Assembly (NCBI GenBank): GCA_963774325.1
Contig: CAVZEF010000006.1
Coordinates: 1,214,003 to 1,278,002, forward strand
Direction of reading: 5' to 3'
Source: an uncultured Pseudomonadota bacterium
GTDB lineage: Bacteria > Myxococcota_A > Polyangia > Fen-1088
Length of the DNA: 64,000 bases
The notes under the pieces were generated by a model. It was given only the letters and a program-made list of their open reading frames with translations. It ran no database searches and was not told where the DNA came from. Of this stretch, positions 5,118 to 16,838 are shown piece after piece (positions within the stretch are counted from its first letter, which is position 1; each line of letters starts with the position of its first letter). The position numbers and the translations under genes were made by a program.

Positions 5118-7055
5118 TCAGAGCACGGCGCTGTCCAGGATGTGATTGATCGCCATCTGCAGGCCGTCGAGCGTCTGCGTCGTCCCCGCCGGCCAGTCGC
5201 GCGTGTTGATGACGTAGGCCCAGTCGACGTCGTCGCCGCGGGACTGCGCCCAGGACGATGCGCCCGGCGTGCTGCCGGCGCGCGCGCCCGGAGCGCGCCG
5301 CCCGTTGCCCCAGACCGCGTGGCGGTGGATGAACTGCACCATCGCCATCGCCGACGCGCCCGTGCCGTCGTTGGGCGCGCCGACTTCGTTGATCTCGCCG
5401 TCGCCGCCGTACACCGACGGCACCAGCAGCGGCGACGTCAGCTCGAGAGGGCTCAGACCCAGCCCCTGGTCCTCGGCGATCGCCTCGTCGTCGGTGCGCC
5501 CCGCCGGTCGCGTCGAGATCACGCGCACCTGGGTGATGTCGGCGGGCGCCAGCAACGTCTGGCGCACATAGGTGAAGTACGGCGTGCCGGTCACGCGCTC
5601 GACCGCCGCGCCCGCCAGCAGGTAGCCGTAGTTCGAGTACTGGCTCTTTGCCCCCGGCGCGAAGTCGAGCGGGCGCCCGTACATGTACTTCGCGATCTCC
5701 AGCTTGGTCACTGGTTGCCCGAGCCCCAGCGCGAGCGCGATCGTGCGCATGCTGTACGTGGGATCGAAGCCCGATCCCGTGGGCGAATCGTCGTAGCCCG
5801 CCGTGTGGTCGAGGAGCTGCTGCACGGTGATGGTGTCGCTGCGCGGGTCGGCCGGGCGCGAAAACCCGAGCAGCGGATAGACCGCCGTCGTCGGTTTGAG
5901 CTTGCCCGCGTCGTAGAGCGATTGCACCGCCGCCGCCAGGAACATCTTGCTGCAGCTCGCGAGCAAGAACCGATCGCTCACCTTGGTCACGCGATAGCCC
6001 GGCTCCGCCCACGTGTACGCGCGCGCGAGCTCGAGCGCGCCGTTCTTGCCGACGGCGACCTGGGCGGCGCGCACGCCGTTCTCTTTCATGAAGGCTTGCA
6101 TCGCGTGGTCGAGCGCCGCCAGCGCCGGCACCGGCGTCCCCTCGACCGTCCAGTGGCGCGGCGACGGGACGTCCTGCTTCGCGAAGATCGCGGCGTAGCG
6201 CGTGTCGCCGCCCGCCCCGCCGCCCTGCACGCAGATCGGGTAGAAACCCTGCGCGCTCTGGATGTCGAATTCCTTCTGGTAGTCCGCCGCGGTCAGGCCG
6301 TGCCGCGCGACCCACGGGCCCACGACGTCGTCCTTGAACACCGAGCAGTAGTTCTGATCTCCGGAGAGCGCGACGTAGGCCAGCCGATACCCGGCGAGCC
6401 GATGGCCGGGCAGCTGCGTCTCAGCGTCGAACGTCGTCTGGTAGGCGGCCGCGGTGTCGGCCGCGTGCACGTGCCATTTGACGTAGTTGGGGTTCGCCTG
6501 CCAGACCGCCGCGTAGCGCTGGTCGCCGGCGGTGCCGTAGATCGCCACCGAGCGCAGCACCAGGCGCGCATCCGCCGCCGCGCGGTTCTGATACTGGAAG
6601 GTTCCGACCTGGGTCGGCAGCCCCGACGTCAATCCATGTCGCGCCACCCAGGGGCCCGCGACCCCTTGCTCGAACACCGCCGCGAAGATCGCATTGGCGC
6701 TGGCGCCGGTCGCCGACACCAGCACCGGCGCGTAGCCTTGCGCCGTGTGCGTGTTGAAGAAGGTCTGATACCCCGCGGCGTCGACGCCGTGAACGGCGAC
6801 CCACGCCGGCCCCGAGCGCACGACCCATACCGCCGCGTAGCGCGCATCCCCCGGCTCCCCGTAGACGCTGAGCGAGATCATTCGATAGCCCAGCCCGGAC
6901 AGCTTGTTGAAGCTCGCCTGATGCTCCGCCCCGGTCACCCCGTGATACGCCTGCACCGCCATCGTCGCCCCTCCCTCGAATCCCAACGCCACGCCCGTCG
7001 CGAGCCCGGCGCGGCAGGACACTAAACGAGGAAGGTACGCCGATCTTCCCGGCAA
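5118..7055 (-). CDS. Beta-lactamase-family serine hydrolase (SxxK motif SCSK) with four N-terminal ~55-aa repeats
   Basis: The C-terminal half reads ...DRFLLASCSKMFLAAAVQSLYDAG... (class C / EstB-like). The N-terminus has four repeats of the form YAAVW...PWVARHG...YQ..F...GY.P. Confidence 0.75.
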   Translation of the reverse strand: MPGRSAYLPRLVSCRAGLATGVALGFEGGATMAVQAYHGVTGAEHQASFNKLSGLGYRMISLSVYGEPGDARYAAVWVVRSGPAWVAVHGVDAAGYQTFFNTHTAQGYAPVLVSATGASANAIFAAVFEQGVAGPWVARHGLTSGLPTQVGTFQYQNRAAADARLVLRSVAIYGTAGDQRYAAVWQANPNYVKWHVHAADTAAAYQTTFDAETQLPGHRLAGYRLAYVALSGDQNYCSVFKDDVVGPWVARHGLTAADYQKEFDIQSAQGFYPICVQGGGAGGDTRYAAIFAKQDVPSPRHWTVEGTPVPALAALDHAMQAFMKENGVRAAQVAVGKNGALELARAYTWAEPGYRVTKVSDRFLLASCSKMFLAAAVQSLYDAGKLKPTTAVYPLLGFSRPADPRSDTITVQQLLDHTAGYDDSPTGSGFDPTYSMRTIALALGLGQPVTKLEIAKYMYGRPLDFAPGAKSQYSNYGYLLAGAAVERVTGTPYFTYVRQTLLAPADITQVRVISTRPAGRTDDEAIAEDQGLGLSPLELTSPLLVPSVYGGDGEINEVGAPNDGTGASAMAMVQFIHRHAVWGNGRRAPGARAGSTPGASSWAQSRGDDVDWAYVINTRDWPAGTTQTLDGLQMAINHILDSAVL

Positions 7056-7086: not shown

Positions 7087-7908
7087 TCATGGAACGGGGA
7101 GAACGTCGATGACGACGCCGGCCTTCGAGGAGAGCAGCGTCACGGGATCGAGAACGATGACCTCCAGTTTGGCTGGACCTGGATCCGTTGCGCGGAACAC
7201 GACCGACGACTTCCGGTAGTCGATCGGGTCGAGCATCGGCCAGCTCGCCGGCCGAACATCGATCGTAGGGTTGTGAGCCAGGACGTCCTTCGGAACGTGA
7301 ACCTGCACTTCGAACGTGTCGCCCACCCGGACGGGACTCTTCGAGACCTCGATGCTCGCAATCCTGGGTACACGAGACGCAATATCGGGAACGAGGTGGG
7401 CGGCCAGAAAGGACTGAATGCGCCGGGCGAGCGGCATCACCTTGGGACCCCGGCGATGATTGTTCAGCGACACACACACATTTCGAAAGACCCAAAGAAT
7501 GTCGCCACCGTCGTGAGACTCGAACTCGACCGCCAGCTCGCCCACCTTCTCGAGCGCAAGAGCCATGTGATGCTTCTCGGTCGTCGTGTTCATGGCATTT
7601 TCGATCAGCCGCGCCCGGGCACCGGCGGGTCCGGTTCCCAAGACGTAAATCTCGACAGTGATCGAGTCGGCGCGACGCTGCCAGTCCCAGGTGGCCAACC
7701 CGACTCCCGACTCGAAAGGAAGGGCGTCGTGCTGGAGCAGGCGGAACCCCTGTAGATCCTCTGACAGGACTGACGTCAGAAGGCGCCAGTCGGCGAGAAC
7801 CCCGTCAGTCGCATCGAGCCCGCCCAGGGCGTCGATACCAACCAGCGCCTTGAAGTCCGTGACCTTCGCATCGGGGTCATACTCGTTCGAATCGTCACCT
7901 TCAGTCAT
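7087..7908 (-). CDS. Hypothetical protein (273 aa), downstream partner of the transglutaminase-like protein
   Basis: Start MTEGDDSNEY sits at an ATGA overlap (7905-7908) with the upstream gene stop. GC is ~60% against ~70% in the flanks. No recognisable motif. Confidence 0.55.
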   Translation of the reverse strand: MTEGDDSNEYDPDAKVTDFKALVGIDALGGLDATDGVLADWRLLTSVLSEDLQGFRLLQHDALPFESGVGLATWDWQRRADSITVEIYVLGTGPAGARARLIENAMNTTTEKHHMALALEKVGELAVEFESHDGGDILWVFRNVCVSLNNHRRGPKVMPLARRIQSFLAAHLVPDIASRVPRIASIEVSKSPVRVGDTFEVQVHVPKDVLAHNPTIDVRPASWPMLDPIDYRKSSVVFRATDPGPAKLEVIVLDPVTLLSSKAGVVIDVLPVP

Positions 7909-9068
7909 TTGACGACGAGAACTCCAATCTCCGGTTGCACGTCCTCCGGACGCCCGGGTCGACACCAGCGCTCGTACAGGGATGGCGTATCATCGATGCT
8001 GTCGGCCAGGTACTCTGGAACCGTTTCGGTCGCGAGGTGAGGCTTCGCACACGCATCGACAGCCTTCGCACCGTAGGTGACGGCAAATGCGTGATTGCCG
8101 AACGCGGTTCGCCTCACTGAATCGGGCGGCACCAACCTCAACGATTCATCGTCCCTGAAAAATGGATTGTTACACAGCCCAACACCCACCAGATTCGTGG
8201 GTCGAATGTACCCAAAAGGCTTGAGAAACAGCCACGCGGAAACAACGCCGACGGCGCCCGCCAGTGCTTGAACGGCCGCAGCCTGGTCGTAGCAGTTACA
8301 GACAGCGCTCCGCCTCAACATGTAGAGCCCCAGATTGAAAGTACCGCCACGAGCGTTCACGCCGTATTTAGCGGCACCACTATCTGTCTCGTAACGGAGC
8401 CCGTGCCCGCTGTGGCAGTAGGCGGCGATGGTCGCCATCACCGCCCATCGATTGTTCCCGGTCACACCGACATGCCCGAAAAGAAATCGGAGCACCTCGG
8501 CCCATACGCCGTACTTCCGGTACGGCACACTCGGGATGGCCAGGATGAAGTAGATCTCGGCGAACGTCGTGCCCAGGCTGGCGCTGATCGGAGTTGCCTC
8601 CACGTCCAGGCGCCACGCGATGCGTCCGCGGCAAGCGCGCAGCTCCTCGGGGGGATTCGCAATGCGGGCGCGGACCGTGTGTTCGCCGGCGCTCGAGGGG
8701 CAAGTGCCCTCGATCGACACGCCCGAAAGCGTGCCGACCAGGCGCGCCTCTCCGCTGACGTTCCGGGACTTGGTGATCCTCAACTTCACCTCGACGGCGT
8801 AGGGACCGCCGAGGCCTCCAGCGAGGAACACCGCCGGGCGCTTCGAATAAGGGTCGACCGGCAGGTGCAATAGCCTGGCGATCCGATTCCAGACGTCCTC
8901 GATCGCGTGCTCTTTCCCTATTTCCCAGTGCGGCCCCTCGACGGTCGTCCGACCGCGACTGACCTTGATCCCTGACTTGAAGGTGATCGACACCAGCTCG
9001 GCGGCGAGCTCCGCGTCCGGCGGCGGCGTCGCCGCCGGCACGACCGCGACGGGCTCACCGACCTGCAC
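7905..9068 (-). CDS. Hypothetical protein with a putative transglutaminase-like / papain-fold Cys-His-Asp core
   Basis: The C-terminal region reads ...SAVCNCYDQAAAVQALAGAVGV...(60 aa)...GNHAFAVTYGAKAVDAC. This resembles the TGc consensus C..FA...L....GIP...HAW.EVY...W..D. GC is low. Confidence 0.5.
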   Translation of the reverse strand: MQVGEPVAVVPAATPPPDAELAAELVSITFKSGIKVSRGRTTVEGPHWEIGKEHAIEDVWNRIARLLHLPVDPYSKRPAVFLAGGLGGPYAVEVKLRITKSRNVSGEARLVGTLSGVSIEGTCPSSAGEHTVRARIANPPEELRACRGRIAWRLDVEATPISASLGTTFAEIYFILAIPSVPYRKYGVWAEVLRFLFGHVGVTGNNRWAVMATIAAYCHSGHGLRYETDSGAAKYGVNARGGTFNLGLYMLRRSAVCNCYDQAAAVQALAGAVGVVSAWLFLKPFGYIRPTNLVGVGLCNNPFFRDDESLRLVPPDSVRRTAFGNHAFAVTYGAKAVDACAKPHLATETVPEYLADSIDDTPSLYERWCRPGRPEDVQPEIGVLVVK

Positions 9069-9147
9069 GACGGCGCTCCGGATGTGTCAACCCACGCACG
9101 GCTGACTTATCGCCGGAGCGCGAGGAAAGTTGCGTGCGGGCGCAACG

Positions 9148-11865
9148 CTAGTACGTATCGTGGATCGACGTCGCCTTCACGCGCGGCACCGGGCCGGTCC
9201 ACTCGACGGTGACGGCCTCGCCGGGGAGCAGATCGAAGTAGTTGTCCGAGAACATCTCCTCGCGCCGCGACGGCGCCGGATCGGCGTCGAGGTGCACCGC
9301 GCGCGCCAGGCGCCGCGCCGCGACCCGCACCGACGCACCCACGGTCGCGCCCGCGGGGTGCGGCGTCGACCGTGACCGACAGCTCGGGATCGGGCAGCAC
9401 CAGGTCCTTGGTCTTCTCGAAGTAGTAGAAGCCGCGCGCCAGCCGTTCGCCGTCCGGCGACGCCAGCTCCGCCACCAGCACGACGTGCGCGGGATTGGCG
9501 CCCTGCAACGCCGCCGCGCGCGGCCAGCTCGACAGCACCGCGCTCGCGTTCGGCGCCAGCGTGACGTCGCTGGCCTTGCGCCACAGCTCGCGCCCGTCGA
9601 AGTCGACCAGCCGCAACGTCAGCTGCGCGCGCGTCGGCGCGCGCAGATCGGAGACGCCGTAAACGCGAATCTCGCCGCTCTCCTCGACGGGGCTGAGCAG
9701 GATCGGCGCGAAGAAGCGCCGCGCGGCGTAGTGCAGCGCCTTCCAGCGGCCGAAGTAGTCGATGCCGGACCACGACGCCACCGGCCAGCAGTCGTCGAGC
9801 TGCCAGTACAGGCTGCCCTGGTTGTACGGCATGCGCCGGCGGTGCGCCTCGGCGGCGTAGCTGATCACCGTCGCCTGCAGCACCTGGCTCATGTACAGGA
9901 ACGACGCGAAGTCCTTCGGCTTGCGAAAGTCGCGGTCCATGTACGTGCGCACCAGCGGATTGCCGCGCGGGTGGCGCTGGTGCGACGAGCATGACCGGCG
10001 ACTCGATGTCGTAGTCGGCCGGCGTCGCGTAGCGCGCGACGCTGGCGAGCTCGGGGAACGACTGAAAGCCGTACTCGCTCATGAAGCGCGACGTGTTCGG
10101 GCCGTAGTCGCTGTACGGCGCCTCGGCGTGCCAGACGCCCCAGTAGTGCATGTCGCCGTAGCCGACCTTGTTGGCTGCGATCTTGTCGTCGTTGGCGCTG
10201 GGTGAGCTGCGCGTGTAAAAGCGGCCGGGGTCTTCCTCGGCGACGACCTTGGGCAGCACGTCGTAAAAGACGCGCTTGTACGCGCGCCAGATCTTGTCCT
10301 GCGCCGCCTTGTCGAGGTGGAACTTCTCCTGCCAGCCCCACCCCTTCCAGGCGACCTCCATCTCGTTGTTGCCGGCCCACAGCGCCAGGCTGGGATGGTT
10401 GCGCAGGCGGCGCACGTTCTCGATCGCCTCCTGGCGGACGTTCTCGATGAACGGCGCGTCGCCGGGATACATGCTGCAGGCGAACATGAAGTCCTGCCAC
10501 ACCAGGATCCCCAGCTCGTCGCAGAGGTCGTAGAAGCGATCGTCCTCGTAGATGCCGCCGCCCCAGACGCGCAGCATGTTCATGTGCGCGTCGGCGGCCG
10601 ACTGCACCAGGAAGCGATAGCGCTCCGGCGTCACGCGATCGAGGAAGCTGTCCGACGGGATGTAGTTCGCGCCCTTCATGAACACGGGCGCGCCGTTGAC
10701 CTCGACGGTGAAGCTCTTGCCGTCCTTGTCGCCGCGATGGACGACCTCGAGCGTGCGCAGGCCGACGCGCACCGAGCGCGTGTCGCGCACGATGCCGGCG
10801 ACCGACAGCTCGGCCGCGATGGTGTAAAGACGCGCCGGGCCGAGCCCGTTCGGCCACCAGCGCTCGGGCCGATCGATCGCGAGGTCGACCTCGATCGCGT
10901 TGCGGCCCGCCTTCAGCGTCGCGCCCGCCTCGGCCAGCGCGCGCGCCGCCCGCCAGCGACAGGCGCAGCTGCGCGCGGCCCGCGTGCGACGCCATCACGG
11001 TGGTGGTCACGCGCAGCGTCGCGCGCGCATCGGTGAGCGACGTCTGCAACGCGTGCACGTCGTCGATGCGCGCCGCGTCCCAGGCCTCGAGCCGCACCGG
11101 GCGCCAGACGCCGCTGGTCACGAAGCGCGGGCCCCAGTCCCAGCCGTAGTGATACGGCGCCTTGCGCGTGTACATGCTCACCATCGGCGTGGCCTGGTCG
11201 TTGCTGGCCGGAAGGATGTAGCCGAGCCGCTCGTACGCCGGCATCACGTGCTCGATCGGTGAGCGAAACCGAACCAGCAGCGTGTTCTCCCCCTTGTGCA
11301 GGTGCGATTTCACGGCGACGCGCCACGACCGGAACATGTTGTCGGCGCTCAGCACCGACGCGCCGTTGACGAAGACCTCGGCGTAGGTGTCGAGGCCCAG
11401 GAAGTCGAGCTCGATCCGCTCGCGCGCGAGGAGCGCGTCGTCAGCGACGAACGTCGTGCGGTACTCCCAGTCTTCCTTGTCGATCCACTGCTGGTCTTTC
11501 TCGTTCGTGCCGACGAACGGGTCGGCGATCTTGTGGTTCGCGAGCAGATCGGTGTGCACGCAGCCCGGCACCGTCGCCGGCAGCCAGCCGCTGGCGTCGG
11601 CGTGCGCGTGGGCGTCGGCGTGCGCGTGCGCGTGGGCGTCGACATCGGCGGCCGGTTTCCCCCCGTGCGGCGCCTGGCGGAACGTCCAGGGCCCGTGCAG
11701 CTCGGTCGAAAGGCGCGCCTCGGAGGTCGCCGCCGCCGCCGCCGCGCTGGCAGGGAACGCCGCTCCGACGTCACCCGGGGCGCCCAAGCTCATCCCGACC
11801 ATGACACCAGCCGCCAGGAGCCGCGTCGTCGGTGGAACCCCCGATCGCTCCATCGTCTGCGACAC
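9148..11865 (-). pseudogene. Glycoside hydrolase family 2 beta-mannosidase, interrupted by at least 4 frameshifts
   Basis: Four ORF pieces (9889..11865, 9177..10790, 9107..9952, 9148..9342) together reconstruct one beta-mannosidase. Residues seen include WGGGIYEDD, NEMEVAW, VRTYMDRDFRKPKDF and a C-terminus ...VTVEWTGPVPRVKATSIHDTY. Each piece decays into R/G-rich nonsense at a frame switch. Confidence 0.7.
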
Positions 11866-11992
11866 GCGGCGGAGAATGGCAGAAGGCGCCGCGGTGATCC
11901 ATCGGACAGATCAGCCTGGCAACGGCCCCCGCGTGCGCATTCTATTTGACGACCGCCGACCGAGGGCGCTAGCCTCAGCCTGTCTTCGTCAC

Positions 11993-12064
11993 GGGCGTTT
12001 AACTCAGCGGAAGAGTGCGACCTTCACACGGTCGAAGTCGCAGGTTCAATCCCTGCAACGCCCA
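11993..12064 (+). tRNA. tRNA-Val (anticodon CAC)
   Basis: The sequence folds as a cloverleaf: acceptor GGGCGTT/AACGCCC; D stem ACTC/GAGT; anticodon stem CGACC/GGTCG with loop TTCACAC; T arm GCAGG-TTCAATC-CCTGC; discriminator A. No CCA is encoded. Confidence 0.8.
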
Positions 12065-12070
12065 CAAAAA

Positions 12071-12104
12071 GGCGGCGGAATCGCAGATTCCTGCCGCCTT
12101 TTTC
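12071..12104 (+). terminator. Rho-independent terminator immediately 3' of tRNA-Val
   Basis: Stem GGCGGCGGAATC...GATTCCTGCCGCC (one bulge) followed by TTTTT. Confidence 0.65.
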
Positions 12105-12109
12105 TTGGC

Positions 12110-12481
12110 TGGGTACCGAATGTGCCTGTGCCTGTGGTGCTGACGCCCGCCGAGGTCGTGACCCTCCTGGCGGGCTTGACTGGGCCCACCGCCCTCGTGG
12201 GTTCCTTTACGGCGCCGGCCTGCGCCTGCTCGAGGCGCTTCGATTCCGCGTCAAGGACGTCGATTCCGAGCGGCGCGAGATCATTGTCCGGCGCGGAAGG
12301 GCCAGAAGGATCGGCACACCGAGCCGCCGTCGCCGCCAGAATTCCCAAGCACCTCACGCCCCATACGCTCCGCCACTCCTTCGCGACGCACCTCTTGGAA
12401 TCCGGCTACGACATCCGCACGATCCAAGAGCTCCTCGGTCACAAGGACGTCAGCACCACGATGATCTACCCCACGTCTTGA
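12110..12481 (+). pseudogene. Tyrosine recombinase (IntI/XerD-like integrase) remnant. The N-terminal half is missing, and it has an internal frameshift or deletion and a truncated C-terminus.
   Basis: The frame ending at 12481 reads ...[43 protein letters not shown]. An upstream frame reads ..[30 protein letters not shown](K)GQKDRHT... with one missing base. The R..H..Y C-terminal catalytic motifs are present but the gene is clearly not intact. Confidence 0.6.
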
Positions 12482-12704
12482 ATCGAGGCGCCGGTGGCAT
12501 TCGCAGCCCCCTCGATCGCTGACCAGCCTGCGACCTCTCGGCATACCTCTCGCGGCCCTGGCCGCGGCCCTTATCGAATCATTCAGCGAGGCCCTGCCTC
12601 GCAAGCCCGCGAGATCGCGCTGGAGCGGTGCTCGAGGCGACCTGGACATGCTGTGGCCAAGGATTATCCAACTGTGGAGAATACGAGTTATCCGGACGGG
12701 CGGC

Positions 12705-13037
12705 ATGCGATACGAAGTGCTTTCGGGCGATACCGAGATCGGCTGGTCCGAACTCGAGTTCGGTGACCCTCCAATGGGCGTCGCCCACGGTCGATTCCAT
12801 CCGTCCAAGTTCTATCGTTCCTCTAGCCACGCAGGCCCCAACAGAGACCTGCGGGCGCGTCCGGAGGGAAGCGGGGAGTTCTTCCAGCCCAGCGGCGGCG
12901 TGTTCATCGAGGATCTATCTGCCGACTTTGGACCCGAGGGAGTCGAGGTCAGCGTTCTCGGCGTAGACGGCGCGACCTACCTTCGGTTCTTCCCCCACCA
13001 CGTAAAGACCTACGAGGATCAGTTCCGCTCCAAGTGA
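12705..13037 (+). CDS. Cassette ORF 1: small hypothetical protein, immunity-protein-like
   Basis: Translation MRYEVLSGDTEIGWSELEFGDPPMGVAHGRF...YLRFFPHHVKTYEDQFRSK. It is preceded by a GTTATCC box at ~12687 and followed by an attC-like site. Confidence 0.5.
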   Translation: MRYEVLSGDTEIGWSELEFGDPPMGVAHGRFHPSKFYRSSSHAGPNRDLRARPEGSGEFFQPSGGVFIEDLSADFGPEGVEVSVLGVDGATYLRFFPHHVKTYEDQFRSK

Positions 13038-13042
13038 TCGCC

Positions 13043-13098
13043 GGCTAACATGGCGTTGCAGCGGTCGATCATCGCCGCTGAACACCAAGACGTTCGAC
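13043..13098 (+). repeat. attC-like site 1 (56 nt)
   Basis: Layout: GGCTAAC, 3 nt, GCGTTGCAGCGG, spacer, CCGCTGAACAC, spacer, GTTCGAC. The arms pair with one unpaired G. The GTT box lies 19 nt before the next ATG. Confidence 0.55.
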
Positions 13099-13116
13099 GG
13101 ACCGGGAAGTGCCTCA

Positions 13117-13578
13117 ATGAGGACCGTGGAGGAATTGACCGCCGCTCTCGCTTTGGCGCCTTTAGCGCACCGCGACGCCAGACGCCGCGGTCCCGCTGAT
13201 CCGACATCCTTCACTGATTTGGAGTCACGCTTTCAAGTCAAACTCCCTTTCGACGTTCGCGCCTTCTATTCCAGGATGGACGGGACCGACCTGCTGGACG
13301 CCGAGCACGGCCTGACGACACTTTGGCCACTGGATCGCTGGACTCGCCTCGACCAAGAGGCCCCGCAGTACGCCACGGATGCCCCCGCCGGCGCCATCGT
13401 CCTCGCGGACTATTCACTCTGGTGCTGGGCGTATGCGGCCGAATTCGAACCTGGGACTGAGCGGACGATCGTACACATTGTCGGAGGCCCTGGCGGCGTG
13501 CCAATCGCGGAGACCTTCACAGAATTCCTTGAGTTAGTGGTGACAAACAGTCCGCGCCTCTTTGGGGAGGCTGGCTAA
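13117..13578 (+). CDS. Cassette ORF 2: SMI1/KNR4 (SUKH-1) family immunity-like protein
   Basis: Translation ...FDVRAFYSRMDGTDLLD...TTLWPLDRW...IVLADYSLWCWAYAAEF...IVHIVGGPGGVPIAETFTEFLELVV matches SUKH hallmarks. Confidence 0.6.
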   Translation: MRTVEELTAALALAPLAHRDARRRGPADPTSFTDLESRFQVKLPFDVRAFYSRMDGTDLLDAEHGLTTLWPLDRWTRLDQEAPQYATDAPAGAIVLADYSLWCWAYAAEFEPGTERTIVHIVGGPGGVPIAETFTEFLELVVTNSPRLFGEAG

Positions 13579-13635
13579 CCGCGCGTTGCAGAGGACGGCG
13601 GTTCGCGCCGCTGCTGAACGCCAGTATCGTTGGGC
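13573..13635 (+). repeat. attC-like site 2 (63 nt)
   Basis: The stop codon is embedded in GGCTAAC. GCGTT-G-CAG pairs with CTG-AACGC with a bulged G. Then CAGTATC and GTTGGGC, 7 nt before ATG 13643. Confidence 0.6.
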
Positions 13636-13642
13636 AGACGAG

Positions 13643-13927
13643 ATGTCCTTGGGAGCTGGGCCTAAGGTCGAAGAATGGCGGCGGAGTTCTGCCGCCCTTC
13701 CGATCGAATGGAAGGGAAACCTTGGAGACGACTGCACGGCCACGTGGGCAGGCCTCACGTTGCGAGCCGAATCCATGAAGCGGGGCTCCTGGTGGTGGGC
13801 GGTCAACGATGATCGCAGCGGCGAGACGATCGATTCTTCGAACGAGTCCACCGAGCGGTTCACGAATGGAAAGCAGGCGCGCGCAGCTGCCGAGCGTGTC
13901 GCGAGGAAGTGGCTCGCGGGGCTGTAG
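13643..13927 (+). CDS. Cassette ORF 3: small hypothetical protein (94 aa), immunity-like
   Basis: Translation MSLGAGPKVEEWRRSSAALPIEWKGN...GSWWWAVNDDRSGETIDSSNESTERF... Start taken at the ATG just after the GTTGGGC box. The track ORF 13562 start lies inside the attC site. Confidence 0.5.
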   Translation: MSLGAGPKVEEWRRSSAALPIEWKGNLGDDCTATWAGLTLRAESMKRGSWWWAVNDDRSGETIDSSNESTERFTNGKQARAAAERVARKWLAGL

Positions 13928-13932
13928 CTGCC

Positions 13933-14020
13933 CAACAACGCGTTGCAGCTGTCGGCCGCCCTCGGTCGGCGCTTCGCGCCTCCCTCTAGCGTTTGCAGCT
14001 CAACGCCAGTAACGTTCGAC
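13933..14020 (+). repeat. attC-like site 3 (88 nt, with a duplicated GCGTTGCAG module)
   Basis: Elements in order: CAACAAC; GCGTTGCAGCTG; GCGTTTGCAGCTCAACGC; AACGCCAGTAAC; GTTCGAC, 10 nt before ATG 14031. Confidence 0.5.
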
Positions 14021-14030
14021 GGACGGCGAG

Positions 14031-14435
14031 ATGCGGTTCTCAGGAGTAGTGGCCTTTGTCGTACTCTTGGGGTGCGCCGGACCGGGAACGGTGACGGTCG
14101 GACGGAGTCTCGAGGGAGTCCAGTTCAGTTTCTCTCGCGGAGGCGCGGAGGGACTGGAGTTGATCGGGGTAGAGGTATTCGAATGGAATAGCGGTGTCCG
14201 GGGTAGCACCGTGTGCACGCTCGGTTTGAAGGCCGTTGTCCAGACGCATCCTTCGACTCTGGTTCGCTGGGTCTATGGCAACGCGCCTCCCGACGGTGAA
14301 TACCGGGTAAGCGGCTGCGTCGCTCTCGTCCCAGGCCGCGACTACGGTGTCGCAGGGTTTCGATACGACCACCGCATCGTATTGACCCGGTTCCGAGTCG
14401 TGAAAGACGGCTCAGTGATCGGAGACGCGAAGTAG
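14031..14435 (+). CDS. Cassette ORF 4: small lipoprotein (lipobox LLGC)
   Basis: Translation MRFSGVVAFVVLLGCAGPG... gives signal peptide plus Cys. It is a beta-rich 134-aa protein. Confidence 0.55.
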   Translation: MRFSGVVAFVVLLGCAGPGTVTVGRSLEGVQFSFSRGGAEGLELIGVEVFEWNSGVRGSTVCTLGLKAVVQTHPSTLVRWVYGNAPPDGEYRVSGCVALVPGRDYGVAGFRYDHRIVLTRFRVVKDGSVIGDAK

Positions 14436-14469
14436 GAGCAGCTTGTGTCCCCTCCGCGTCTCGCCTGCC

Positions 14470-14542
14470 CGTGGCGCCGTCCATCCCGGCGTTGAACCTG
14501 CCGGCGCTTGCGCGCCGCAGGTTAACGCCAGTAACGTTAGAC
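14470..14542 (+). repeat. attC-like site 4
   Basis: GGCGTT-G-AACCTGC pairs with GCAGGTT-AACGCC (one unpaired G). Then AGTAAC and GTTAGAC, 13 nt before GTG 14556. Confidence 0.5.
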
Positions 14543-14555
14543 TGAGAAGCGAACT

Positions 14556-14857
14556 GTGGCCCACTATCGAGTCTTTCTGCGCGGCGCGAACTTCCTAGTG
14601 AACGTCGACGCGAGGCGAGGCCGACGCGGATCGGCTTCTTCACGACGCGCTTCGTTCAGGCGAATAGTCGCGACGGAGCGGAGCTTCTGGCGGTAGATCT
14701 GATCCGAAGCGATAAATGGCTCAGAGGTGCCGTGTCCAACTCCCCATCGGACCCTCCGCGGATCTTCGCCGAGGAAATCGAGGTGGTCGAAGCCGACCAT
14801 GATCCTGGCTTAGGGTCCGGCTTCAGCCTCTTCCCGATGGACGCCTCCGACGCCTGA
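14556..14857 (+). CDS. Cassette ORF 5: hypothetical protein, disrupted by one frameshift near 14605
   Basis: Frame a gives VAHYRVFLRGANFLVNVD. It then shifts into the frame reading EARPTRIGFFTTRFVQANSRDGAELLAVDLIRSDKW...FPMDASDA*. GC3 favours the plus strand over the antisense ORF 14564..14800. Confidence 0.3.
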
Positions 14858-14869
14858 GCCGTGATCCCC

Positions 14870-14912
14870 GTCTAACCCCCCCGGTCCAACCCGGCGTTGC
14901 CGTCGGGCAAAG
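14870..14912 (+). repeat. Degenerate attC-like site 5
   Basis: GTCTAAC lies 13 nt after the stop codon, followed by GGCGTTGCCGTCGGGCAAAGC, a weak palindrome. Confidence 0.25.
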
Positions 14913-15082
14913 CATGACGATAGGCGTGCCGCGACCGCAGAAATCTGAGGGTCGTCGGGCGACAGCACCCCCATGCATTCGTTGGAAGCCCAGGAGAAGG
15001 GGGGACAATGAACAGTTCTGCGTTATCCTGGGCGTGGTCTTGGCGGGCACGAAAAATGCTCCGAGGGAGAGCCGGGGGATAG

Positions 15083-16183
15083 ATGAAGCCAGAACATCGC
15101 GATCGGACCAGGGCAACGATGGCTGTCGCTCTGGGGCTCGCGCTCTTCGCCGGCTGCGGCGACCAGGCGGGCGACAACGGAGTCGCTCCCGGAACAACCT
15201 CCAGCCCGGCTGGGGCAATTGCCATCGCGTCGGACGCGACCGGACAAAAGCTCGTGGTGGTGGGTGGTGGCATCTGGACATCGATCAACGGCGGCAAGAC
15301 GTGGATCGAGCGGGCGCCGTCCGGGCCGGCGCACATTCAGCAATGGACGTCGGTCGCGTCCGACGCGACGGGGACGAACCTCGTTGCGGTGGTCAATGGT
15401 TTTTATGATCGGCCCGATTCGAATCCGGCAGAGTTCAGCGGGGACGTTTGGGGTTCGGCCGACAGCGGCGCGACCTGGATCGACCGGACCGCGTCCAGCC
15501 CCGCCCATGGCCAAGCGTGGAGGTCCATCGCGTCGGATGCGTCGGGAACGAAGCTGGTCGCCGTGACGGCCGGCTTGGGTGCCTTTGGACCCGGCGCCAT
15601 CTGGACGTCGACCGACGCTGGCTCGACCTGGACCAACCGGACCGGGGCCAATGCTGCGATGAGCGGACAAAGTTGGTCGTCGGTCGCGTCAGATGCGACC
15701 GGGCAGAACCTGGTCGCCGCGGGCAGGGGCTCTGGCGTCTGGGCTTCGCTCGATGGCGGTATGACCTGGACGGACCGCACGCCTGCCGACCCCAAGTTCC
15801 AAGCTAGTTTCGGGGACCAGGTGCAAGGCTGGTCGTCCGTCGCATCCGACGCGACCGGGACCAAGCTCGTCTCGGCCGTCGACGTGGGGGACGTCTGGAC
15901 GTCGACCAACGGTGGCGTCACGTGGAGCGATACCGGCCCTGCGACGTCCTGGCAGGTTTGGTTTTCGGTGGCGTCGGATTCCACGGGGACGAACCTGGTT
16001 GCGGTCGATGGGCTCGTGAGCGGCGACAACGGGGACGTCTGGACGTCGACCAACGGCGGCCTGACCTGGACTGACCAGACTACCGGGAACCAAGCGGCAG
16101 GCGGGCCCTGGGACGCGGTCGCGTTGAACGCGGCCGGGGATCACGTGGTTGCCATCGGACGCGGCGCGATCTGGCGACAGTAA
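15083..16183 (+). CDS. Cassette ORF 6: lipoprotein with ~8 BNR/Asp-box (sialidase-like SxDxGxTW) repeats
   Basis: Translation MKPEHRDRTRATMAVALGLALFAGCG has a lipobox. Repeated motifs include SxNGGKTW, SADSGATW, STDAGSTW, SLDGGMTW, STNGGVTW and STNGGLTW. Confidence 0.75.
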   Translation: MKPEHRDRTRATMAVALGLALFAGCGDQAGDNGVAPGTTSSPAGAIAIASDATGQKLVVVGGGIWTSINGGKTWIERAPSGPAHIQQWTSVASDATGTNLVAVVNGFYDRPDSNPAEFSGDVWGSADSGATWIDRTASSPAHGQAWRSIASDASGTKLVAVTAGLGAFGPGAIWTSTDAGSTWTNRTGANAAMSGQSWSSVASDATGQNLVAAGRGSGVWASLDGGMTWTDRTPADPKFQASFGDQVQGWSSVASDATGTKLVSAVDVGDVWTSTNGGVTWSDTGPATSWQVWFSVASDSTGTNLVAVDGLVSGDNGDVWTSTNGGLTWTDQTTGNQAAGGPWDAVALNAAGDHVVAIGRGAIWRQ

Positions 16184-16373
16184 CCAAGCAGCGTGAATCA
16201 GCAAGTGCAGGGTTGCGCCCTGCCGCTGATCGGCAGATCGCTGGACGGACAAGGGAGCCAAGGTCGCCGAGTGTCCTTATCGAAATCCGGCGCGTGATTC
16301 TCGCCGCAGAAGAATCACACGTCATGGAGGCGATTCACTCCCCGCTACGAGAAGCCTCACGATATCCGGCGGC

Positions 16374-16769
16374 GTGCTTGCAGGTCCCGGGGCTCTGGCC
16401 TTGGCGAGCTCTGATTGGTACTTCGGATTCGCCGATCATCGGGCGCCACACGACGCGTGGCTGCTATCAGCCTCATTCGAAGAGACGGGGACTGGCACGC
16501 GTAGCGAGGAGCGACACGTCTCGTTGCGAGTGCGTCTGCTCGGCGCCTACCATGACTTTGAGCTGGAGTTCTTCTATCCGAAGGTCTTCTCGTACACGTT
16601 CCAGGCGGGTGCCCTGAACTCCGGCCACGGCGACTGGCGGTACGACGAGTTTCGCCTGAGCGACGACGGACACCTCGTACACGAGATCCAGTGGTGCCGA
16701 GAGGCACACGAACCGACGTGGCTGATTCACGCGGACGATGTCGTCTTCACGTCGCGCGCCGCCGGCTAA
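16374..16769 (+). CDS. Cassette ORF 7: hypothetical immunity-like protein. The N-terminus may extend to ATG 16322 with a frameshift.
   Basis: Translation ...SDWYFGFADHRAPHDAWLLSASFEE...HGDWRYDEFRLSDDGHLVHEIQWCREAHEPTWLIHADDVVF. The stop TAA is embedded in GGCTAAC. Confidence 0.45.
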   Translation: MLAGPGALALASSDWYFGFADHRAPHDAWLLSASFEETGTGTRSEERHVSLRVRLLGAYHDFELEFFYPKVFSYTFQAGALNSGHGDWRYDEFRLSDDGHLVHEIQWCREAHEPTWLIHADDVVFTSRAAG

Positions 16770-16838
16770 CCGCCGTTGCAGCGGGCGGAGATCGCACCGC
16801 GACTTCTATCCGACGCCGAGTACAAGGCGGCGTTTAGC
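16764..16838 (+). repeat. attC-like site 7 (last in the array)
   Basis: GGCTAAC-C-GCCGTTGCAGCGGG ... GGCGGCGTTTAGCGC, with a GTTTAGC box. Confidence 0.4.

Follow-up and report, generated by a model that had tools for sequence, protein, structure and literature searches.

The subject of this report is a pair of adjacent genes, in the following called A and B, on the minus strand of a 64,000-nucleotide stretch of contig CAVZEF010000006.1 (positions 1,214,003 to 1,278,002) from an uncultured bacterium of the Polyangia. For the sake of brevity, this whole stretch is referred to as the window. Our preferred interpretation, held with moderate confidence, is that A, a predicted thiol enzyme with a transglutaminase-like fold, and B, its genomic partner, form an orphan effector-immunity pair of an undescribed family of type VI secretion system (T6SS) toxins. 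Judged from the sequences, the window copy would be a descendant of a T6SS-linked lineage that was separated from its spike genes and in which B lost its signal peptide. A first-pass annotation had described the two-gene pair with its ATGA stop/start overlap; both open reading frames (ORFs) were found on the minus strand, and the two peptides quoted there, RSAVCNCYDQAAAVQALAGAVGV and GNHAFAVTYGAKAVDAC, are both present in A. Genome loci and proteins used for comparison carry our own running labels (L and P, respectively).

Fold and predicted active site of protein A

Protein A has 98 homologues in a word-indexed database, and among 1.84 billion proteins 1,367 cluster representatives were matched at E <= 1e-3, 486 of them at 1e-30. 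The family is found in Myxococcota, Acidobacteriota, Proteobacteria, Desulfobacterota, Planctomycetota, Bacteroidota and Methanosarcina. No Pfam or NCBIfam family matched A at E <= 1, including Transglut_core (PF01841) and Transglut_N, and the Pfam matches among 37 or 58 family members were confined to N-terminal add-on domains. A comparison of PDB sequences with A, carried out with the single sequence and with a 78-sequence profile, gave nothing relevant, the matches being chance OspA-like ones. PADLOC defence models matched neither A, nor B, nor the A-B fusion protein P0098. As B is likewise without a Pfam or NCBIfam assignment, the earlier statement that neither protein belongs to a described family holds.

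The AlphaFold2 model of A, calculated from a 78-sequence alignment, reached a predicted local distance difference test score (pLDDT) of 93.9 and a predicted template modelling score (pTM) of 0.91. Model and alignments together show a beta-sandwich followed by a transglutaminase/papain-like core with a predicted Cys259-His326-Asp338 triad. These three residues are invariant in alignments of 37 and of 78 homologues and at least 90% conserved both in 122 and in 58 distant cluster representatives. In the model, the cysteine opens a helix and the histidine and aspartate lie on two adjacent strands, i.e. in the papain/transglutaminase arrangement.

Important insight was gained by comparing this model with known structures. 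The top Foldseek matches in the PDB were TG3, TG2 and factor XIIIa, with a best E of 1.4e-6 and a probability of up to 1.0, and the 45 matches with E < 1e-3 were transglutaminases (including fish enzymes) or band 4.2, with the exception of two matches to GH-family beta-sandwiches. The alignments to TG3 and factor XIIIa comprise 380-440 columns, which means that the N-terminal sandwich is matched along with the core. Template modelling (TM) scores of 0.35-0.42 are modest, and together with sequence identities of 9-13% they indicate that A has diverged very far within this fold and is not an orthologue of the animal enzymes. Altogether, the Cys-His-Asp transglutaminase-like core proposed in the first-pass annotation is supported in triad, arrangement and fold. 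The long N-terminal region noted there is real, but the label 'unrecognised' has to be given up, since the region forms a beta-sandwich, which likewise can be aligned with the N-domain of transglutaminases. Giant Planctomycete-type proteins of the family do not carry this sandwich and retain about profile positions 165-380 only.

Protein B and its pairing with A

The word-index search yielded fifteen homologues of B, a number that rose considerably when a profile was used. The AlphaFold model of B (pLDDT 89.8) consists of an N-terminal alpha/beta domain and a C-terminal immunoglobulin-like (Ig-like) domain. For the alpha/beta domain no PDB match was obtained by Foldseek or by profile, and PDB sequences compared with the single B sequence gave no match either. 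The Ig-like domain gave generic Ig-like PDB matches, with TM-scores of 0.5-0.7 on the target, and a weak PKD profile match (E = 0.003); it is missing from four loci (L078, L019, L020 and L023) and is consequently dispensable in some homologues. The possibility that B is the counterpart of the transglutaminase beta-barrels was ruled out by the alpha/beta nature of its N-terminal domain.

B is the genomic partner of A. To count the pairing, the six-frame ORFs of 77 genome loci with A relatives were searched with a B profile, and in 46 of them B was detected immediately behind A and co-stranded with it, or within one stop-free frame together with A. Tandem B genes also occur, with four copies in L026 and two in L006. 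Among 58 extended A homologues there was a single match to Tli4_C, the C-terminal domain of the Tle4 immunity protein (E = 1e-7). A relationship of B to Tli4 was rejected, as 0 of 45 B sequences match Tli4_C and the lone match was not traceable to B.

Linkage of the family to type VI secretion

The domain formerly called DUF4150 has been renamed PIPY. With its DUF2169 chaperone it makes up a non-canonical tip of the VgrG spike, which serves as an effector carrier (PMC11883445). Three of the word-index homologues of A begin with a Tox-PAAR-like domain (PF13665, DUF4150), and PIPY-A fusions were seen in P0038, P0081, P0084, L030, P0120 and others. In the case of P0081 (locus L078), the gene lies in a cluster of the order ClpV - VgrG - DUF6484 - DUF2169 - unknown - PAAR-like+TsiV, and the 177-aa protein that follows it corresponds to the N-terminal domain of B alone (E = 1e-12).

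The proteins of L078 were used as tblastn probes for T6SS markers within 10 kb of A. Such markers were found in 20 of the approximately 33 loci in which A and B are separate genes. More specifically, in eleven loci (L003-L006, L010, L013, L016, L025, L028, L031 and L033 by label) PIPY is encoded by a gene of its own, the end of which lies 20-50 nt ahead of a standalone A, with DUF2169 and VgrG upstream. L005 and L006 are loci of the cultivable Nannocystis bainbridge and N. punicea. The module type in these relatives is VgrG - DUF2169 chaperone - (thiolase-like protein) - PIPY - A - B; in L003, for example, the order is DUF2169 - 126-aa protein with a PIPIPY motif - A - B. A different architecture is seen in L026 (positions 7850-14900), an 'evolved' VgrG (Phage_GPD, Phage_base_V, Gp5_C) in which A forms the C-terminal domain, followed by the four tandem B genes. 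Each of these four paralogues has its own signal peptide, and VgrG, DUF2169 and PIPY are encoded once more a few kb further downstream.

This repeated linkage or fusion to PIPY and VgrG, with a partner gene next to it, is the pattern by which T6SS effectors and their immunity genes are usually recognised in genomes. The earlier guess at an effector/immunity module thus gains support at the level of the family. Literature searches returned no paper on a transglutaminase-type T6SS or PIPY effector.

Phylogeny, synteny and divergence of the window copy

In a neighbour-joining tree of the catalytic domains, the window copy groups with L001 and L002, and this clade is sister to the PIPY-adjacent L003 and L004. 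The window clade as a whole sits inside a larger PIPY-linked group. The gene order GH2 - A - B - hydrolase, including the dip in GC content described below, recurs in L079-L081 and L015, and in part in L001 and L002. As order and dip are shared by relatives in which A is just 72% identical, the acquisition is old, and the term 'insert' that was first applied to the pair is misleading if it is meant as recent.

Regarding sequence divergence, the flanking proteins of the window and L079 are 86-95% identical, A 72% and B 53%. The synonymous divergence (dS) of A and B amounts to 1.2-1.6, compared with 0.45 for the flanks, which is about threefold. The ratio of non-synonymous to synonymous divergence (dN/dS), calculated against three relatives, was 0.12-0.23 for A and 0.33-0.50 for B, indicating purifying selection on both genes, with B evolving faster. 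The raised divergence of A and B would be compatible with allele turnover at a conflict locus, and a weaker codon bias may contribute to it.

One further member of the window clade is informative on delivery. In L015, a genome with the same synteny, the PIPY search matched the contig that carries the pair. The module found there (L084:7400-11510) has the order DUF6484-like - unknown 365-aa protein - DUF2169 (frameshifted) - PIPY - thiolase-like; it has no adjoining effector gene, is followed by cytochrome oxidase genes and lies about 220 kb from the A-B pair. An effector-less PIPY module at such a distance is what is expected if A is the orphan cargo of a spike encoded elsewhere.

Export signals and likely compartment of action

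Of 36 B genes encoded apart from A, approximately 26 have a reading frame that extends upstream into a hydrophobic signal peptide, often ending in a lipobox, for instance LAGC (L008, L025), APGC (L005, L010), LGGC (L028) or FGAC (L033). All four B copies of L026 have this extension, and a signal peptide or lipobox is present in the majority of the T6SS-linked B proteins. B proteins without a signal peptide are those of the window clade, of L014, L018 and L023, and others. On the side of A, several homologues are fused to LysM, or to OmpA together with PG_binding_1. Exported or lipidated B proteins and LysM, OmpA or peptidoglycan-binding modules on A both point to a target in the cell envelope. 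Based on these sequence features, the target is probably located in the envelope, and perhaps it is peptidoglycan or an envelope protein.

A methionine is usually found just before the conserved domain of signal-peptide B proteins (e.g. L005:11104-12045, L008:4231-5160 and L026:11107-14900; loci L003-L038), and it falls at the position of the start codon of the window B. Within a strict window of +/-3 residues it was detected in 23 of 42 ORFs, and in more of them by eye. This suggests two translation starts in exported B, giving an exported and a cytoplasmic isoform.

Proposed mechanism and alternative explanations

As an effector, A would travel as cargo on a VgrG/PIPY spike and would be injected into neighbouring cells, in which its predicted thiol active site would cleave, deamidate or cross-link a substrate. 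B would neutralise A one-to-one via its N-terminal alpha/beta domain, and the ATGA overlap would secure the joint production of both proteins. In the case of the window, B has no signal peptide and would act in the cytoplasm, at least shielding the producer before export.

Several observations speak against an effector-immunity pair. Firstly, no homologues of VgrG, DUF2169 or PIPY were found in the 64-kb window, and the pair has no secretion gene nearby; in the search with the PIPY protein of L003, the window's own contig was not among the best 120 of 5,684 matches. Secondly, the B of the window clade begins at the ATGA overlap without a signal peptide, and it could therefore not protect the periplasm if the target lies in the envelope. 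Thirdly, A and B form one chain of 630-790 aa in at least 13 of the 77 loci and in many of the best 150 representatives, and a toxin fused to its own antidote is unusual. The carriers of these fusions are Methanosarcina, a Clostridia metagenome-assembled genome (MAG), Archangium, Chitinophaga, Flavobacteriia and Aminicenantes (loci L034, L036, L039 and L065 in Methanosarcina; L046; L052; L043, L059 and L063; L064, L067 and L069; protein P0098). The fused chains have no signal peptide and no T6SS genes nearby, and in the neighbour-joining tree they form a clade of their own. The original role of B may have been that of a regulatory or substrate-binding part within one molecule, and the cytoplasmic B of the window clade is nearer to that state than the exported B of T6SS loci.

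The idea of a pathway common to the surroundings of the fusion genes was rejected, since the neighbours are of many kinds (ATP-grasp, hybrid histidine kinases, subtilase, glutaminase and others). In two of the fusions, P0098 and L046, the gene immediately ahead codes for a very large hybrid histidine kinase.

Because of the single-chain proteins and the cytoplasmic B of the window, we keep as substantial, even if rather unlikely, the explanation that A and B are an intracellular enzyme-regulator pair and not a weapon. A would then modify or cleave an endogenous substrate, B would be a regulatory or substrate-recruiting subunit, i.e. the split form of the single chain seen in archaea, Firmicutes and Bacteroidota, and the T6SS-linked relatives would be a side branch. 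The frequency of single-chain proteins is in line with this, as is their occurrence in T6SS-free organisms (Methanosarcina and Clostridia, for instance), with neither signal peptide nor T6SS neighbours. A cytoplasmic B in a window devoid of T6SS genes, purifying selection on both genes, and the tight placement of the pair between two co-stranded hydrolase genes with no terminator-like site between them would equally suit an intracellular function. However, the window clade nests in the PIPY-linked group and not with the fusion clade, and B evolves much faster than A and the flanks. Moreover, the neighbours of the fusion genes share no pathway that would hint at a housekeeping role, and the genome of a clade-mate (L015) retains a PIPY module without an effector.

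It is improbable that the pair is a decaying or selfish remnant, i.e. a former T6SS pair that is no longer delivered and is kept as an addiction module, because the loss of B in the presence of A would be lethal. The separated spike genes, the lost signal peptide of B and the atypical composition would be expected of such a remnant, as would the adjoining variable region, which contains an integron-like cassette array as well as a GH2 gene with possible frameshifts. Against this, A is intact with all catalytic residues kept, and the locus is shared by at least four genomes, across which the dN/dS of A stays at 0.12-0.23. Also, it is common in T6SS organisms for an effector-immunity pair to lie apart from the vgrG clusters and still be functional. 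Finally, even though GC-rich DNA yields many long spurious ORFs, the notion that A and B are chance reading frames and not genes is refuted by the homologues of both (98 and 15, in addition to the 1,367 cluster representatives of A), the confident fold predictions for both proteins, the conserved gene order and dN/dS values well below 1.

More tentatively, A and B could be the halves of an ancient and widespread self-regulating prokaryotic transglutaminase-like enzyme, present as one chain in archaea, Clostridia, Bacteroidota and some Myxococcota, that was split in the T6SS lineage. The catalytic half would have become the toxin and the regulatory half the immunity protein, which would have gained a signal peptide and possibly kept an internal cytoplasmic start. 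If true, this would document a route from one autoinhibited protein to a toxin-immunity pair, and the A family would be the closest prokaryotic structural counterpart of the beta-sandwich plus core of animal transglutaminases. As T6SS-linked split pairs, orphan pairs with a cytoplasmic B and single chains coexist, the origin of the immunity protein is directly testable. For the T6SS field, the effector-immunity pair would add a family that has no Pfam or NCBIfam model and for which our searches found no describing paper. Its fold suggests a chemistry that is rare among interbacterial toxins, namely thiol deamidation, cross-linking or cleavage of the transglutaminase type, probably in the envelope. 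Two 'hypothetical proteins' now carry predictions that can be tested.

Comparison with known systems

As a whole, A and B would represent a new family within a known kind, namely T6SS effector-immunity pairs with a predicted thiol-enzyme toxin, as far as sequence comparison can tell. The delivery context of the relatives of A is that of PIPY effectors with a DUF2169 chaperone, such as Tse7, PefE and VP1415 (PMC11883445): they are fused to, or directly follow, a PIPY domain with its P-I-P-Y motif in VgrG - (DUF6484) - DUF2169 - (thiolase-like) - PIPY modules, with the partner gene downstream. Differences exist in that the putative toxin domain of A belongs to another, unannotated family, PIPY and toxin are mostly separate genes, and the 64-kb window with the present copy is free of PIPY, DUF2169 and VgrG.

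With animal TG2, TG3 and factor XIIIa (PDB 8oxx, 9bc3, 4kty and others), A shares the beta-sandwich and the order of the Cys-His-Asp core. The cysteine motif of A is NCYDQ, whereas theirs is GQCW, and A has no equivalent of their two C-terminal beta-barrels, in the place of which B provides an alpha/beta and one Ig-like domain. The spacing between histidine and aspartate is 12 residues in A. In TG2 and FXIIIa it is 23.

Among enzymes with a thiol active site, the Tae amidases (NlpC/P60 fold) and the LapG-type proteases are of the same broad fold class as A and act in the periplasm. Their targets are peptidoglycan or envelope proteins, and the Tai immunity proteins are periplasmic, like most B homologues. 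No detectable sequence relationship to Tae/Tai or LapG is known, and unlike Tai the window B is not exported.

The Tox-TGase, Tox-PL and other papain-fold toxins of polymorphic systems (Zhang et al. 2012, PMC3482391), with which the putative toxin A was compared by description only, resemble it as a thiol toxin module with several delivery contexts and an adjacent immunity gene. For the A family these contexts are PAAR-like proteins, VgrG and giant multidomain proteins. The Tox-TGase prototypes, however, are host-directed (AvrPphE/HopX, RtxA), and A matches no Pfam family. Cpe1-Cpi1 is a pair with a papain-like cysteine protease as toxin of T6SS or contact-dependent inhibition (CDI) systems, and Cpe1 cleaves GyrB and ParE (PMC12136450). 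Like the proposed toxin A, Cpe1 is an interbacterial Cys-His-Asp toxin that is fused to or encoded downstream of PAAR, VgrG or Rhs and has a cognate immunity protein, in its case cytoplasmic (PMC12136450). Cpe1 is a small C39/ComA-like protease domain that acts in the cytoplasm, whereas A is larger, contains a beta-sandwich, and is mostly accompanied by an exported B.

Composition and neighbourhood of the locus

The features of the locus are collected in Table 1. The start of A is preceded by GGAG at about 9 nt from the GTG codon, and it agrees with the N-terminus MQVGEP that is conserved in the alignment of homologues.

Table 1. Position of the genes, domains and predicted active-site residues of the A-B locus in the window.
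Feature	Position	Strand	Description and basis
Gene A	7905..9068	minus	GTG start at 9068, TGA stop 7907-7905; 387 aa; predicted thiol enzyme
A N-terminal all-beta sandwich	8544..9011	minus	residues about 20-175; model secondary structure, Foldseek
A catalytic transglutaminase-like core	7908..8531	minus	residues about 180-387; alpha+beta; alignment, model, Foldseek
Cys259 codon TGC	8292..8294	minus	predicted nucleophile; motif N-C-Y-D-Q-A; N-terminus of helix 259-272
His326 codon CAC	8091..8093	minus	predicted general base; motif F-G-N-H-A-F; start of strand 326-331
Asp338 codon GAT	8055..8057	minus	predicted third triad residue; motif L-D-A-C-A-G-P; strand 336-338
ATGA overlap of A stop and B start	7905..7908	minus	translational coupling
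Gene B	7087..7908	minus	ATG 7908-7906, TGA stop 7089-7087; 273 aa; predicted immunity/inhibitor partner
B alpha/beta domain	7384..7881	minus	residues about 10-175; retained in every B homologue; model
B C-terminal Ig-like/PKD-like beta-sandwich	7099..7356	minus	residues about 185-270; model, Foldseek
BTRD1-repeat and beta-lactamase-fold serine hydrolase	5118-7055	minus	flanking gene
GH2 beta-mannosidase	9107-11865	minus	flanking gene

The pair (7087-9068, 1,982 bp) has a GC content of 62.9%, compared with a window mean of 69.5% and a standard deviation of 2.9% among 2-kb windows, and an equally low value is reached in just 1.4% of these 2-kb windows. The reported dip is thus real; the figure of about 60% attached to it was slightly low, as the overall fraction is 0.629 and sub-windows go down to 0.586. 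At third codon positions the GC fraction is 0.76 in A, 0.74 in B and 0.91 in the adjacent BTRD1/beta-lactamase gene. Both flanking genes, a serine hydrolase and a GH2 mannosidase, turned out to be what the first reading had taken them for. Hydrolase, B, A and GH2 are all co-stranded with gaps of 31-38 bp, and a promoter/terminator scan, which was uninformative, showed no terminator-like site between them.

Compared with the intact 868-aa orthologue of L079, the GH2 gene contains three inserted single bases (near 10943, 9987 and 9367), which distribute it over four segments in different frames. These breaks reflect either a pseudogene or assembly errors. Frameshifts are likewise present in several genes of a related MAG (L015/L084).

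An integron-like cassette array with a GC fraction of 0.60-0.64 is located at 12046-16800. It consists of a truncated or frameshifted tyrosine recombinase (Phage_integrase match at 12050-12481) followed by small same-strand ORFs. These are separated by attC-like imperfect palindromes of the form GGCTAAC..GCGTTGCAG ... AACGCCAGTAnCGTTrrrc, which lie at about 13043-13112, 13573-13638, 13930-14023, 14480-14545 and 16754-16800. The idea that A and B are themselves an integron cassette was rejected, since the attC-like repeats are confined to 13.0-16.8 kb and none lies around the pair. The cassette at 13117-13578 codes for a SUKH-1/SMI1_KNR4 protein, a member of a known immunity-protein superfamily. 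Inside the same low-GC cassette region, positions 15083-16183 code for a predicted lipoprotein of 366 aa (LFAGC), which is made up of six or seven BNR/sortilin-type repeats of about 50 aa (W-x-S-x-D-x-G-x-T-W), visible at the DNA level as repeats of 129-174 nt.

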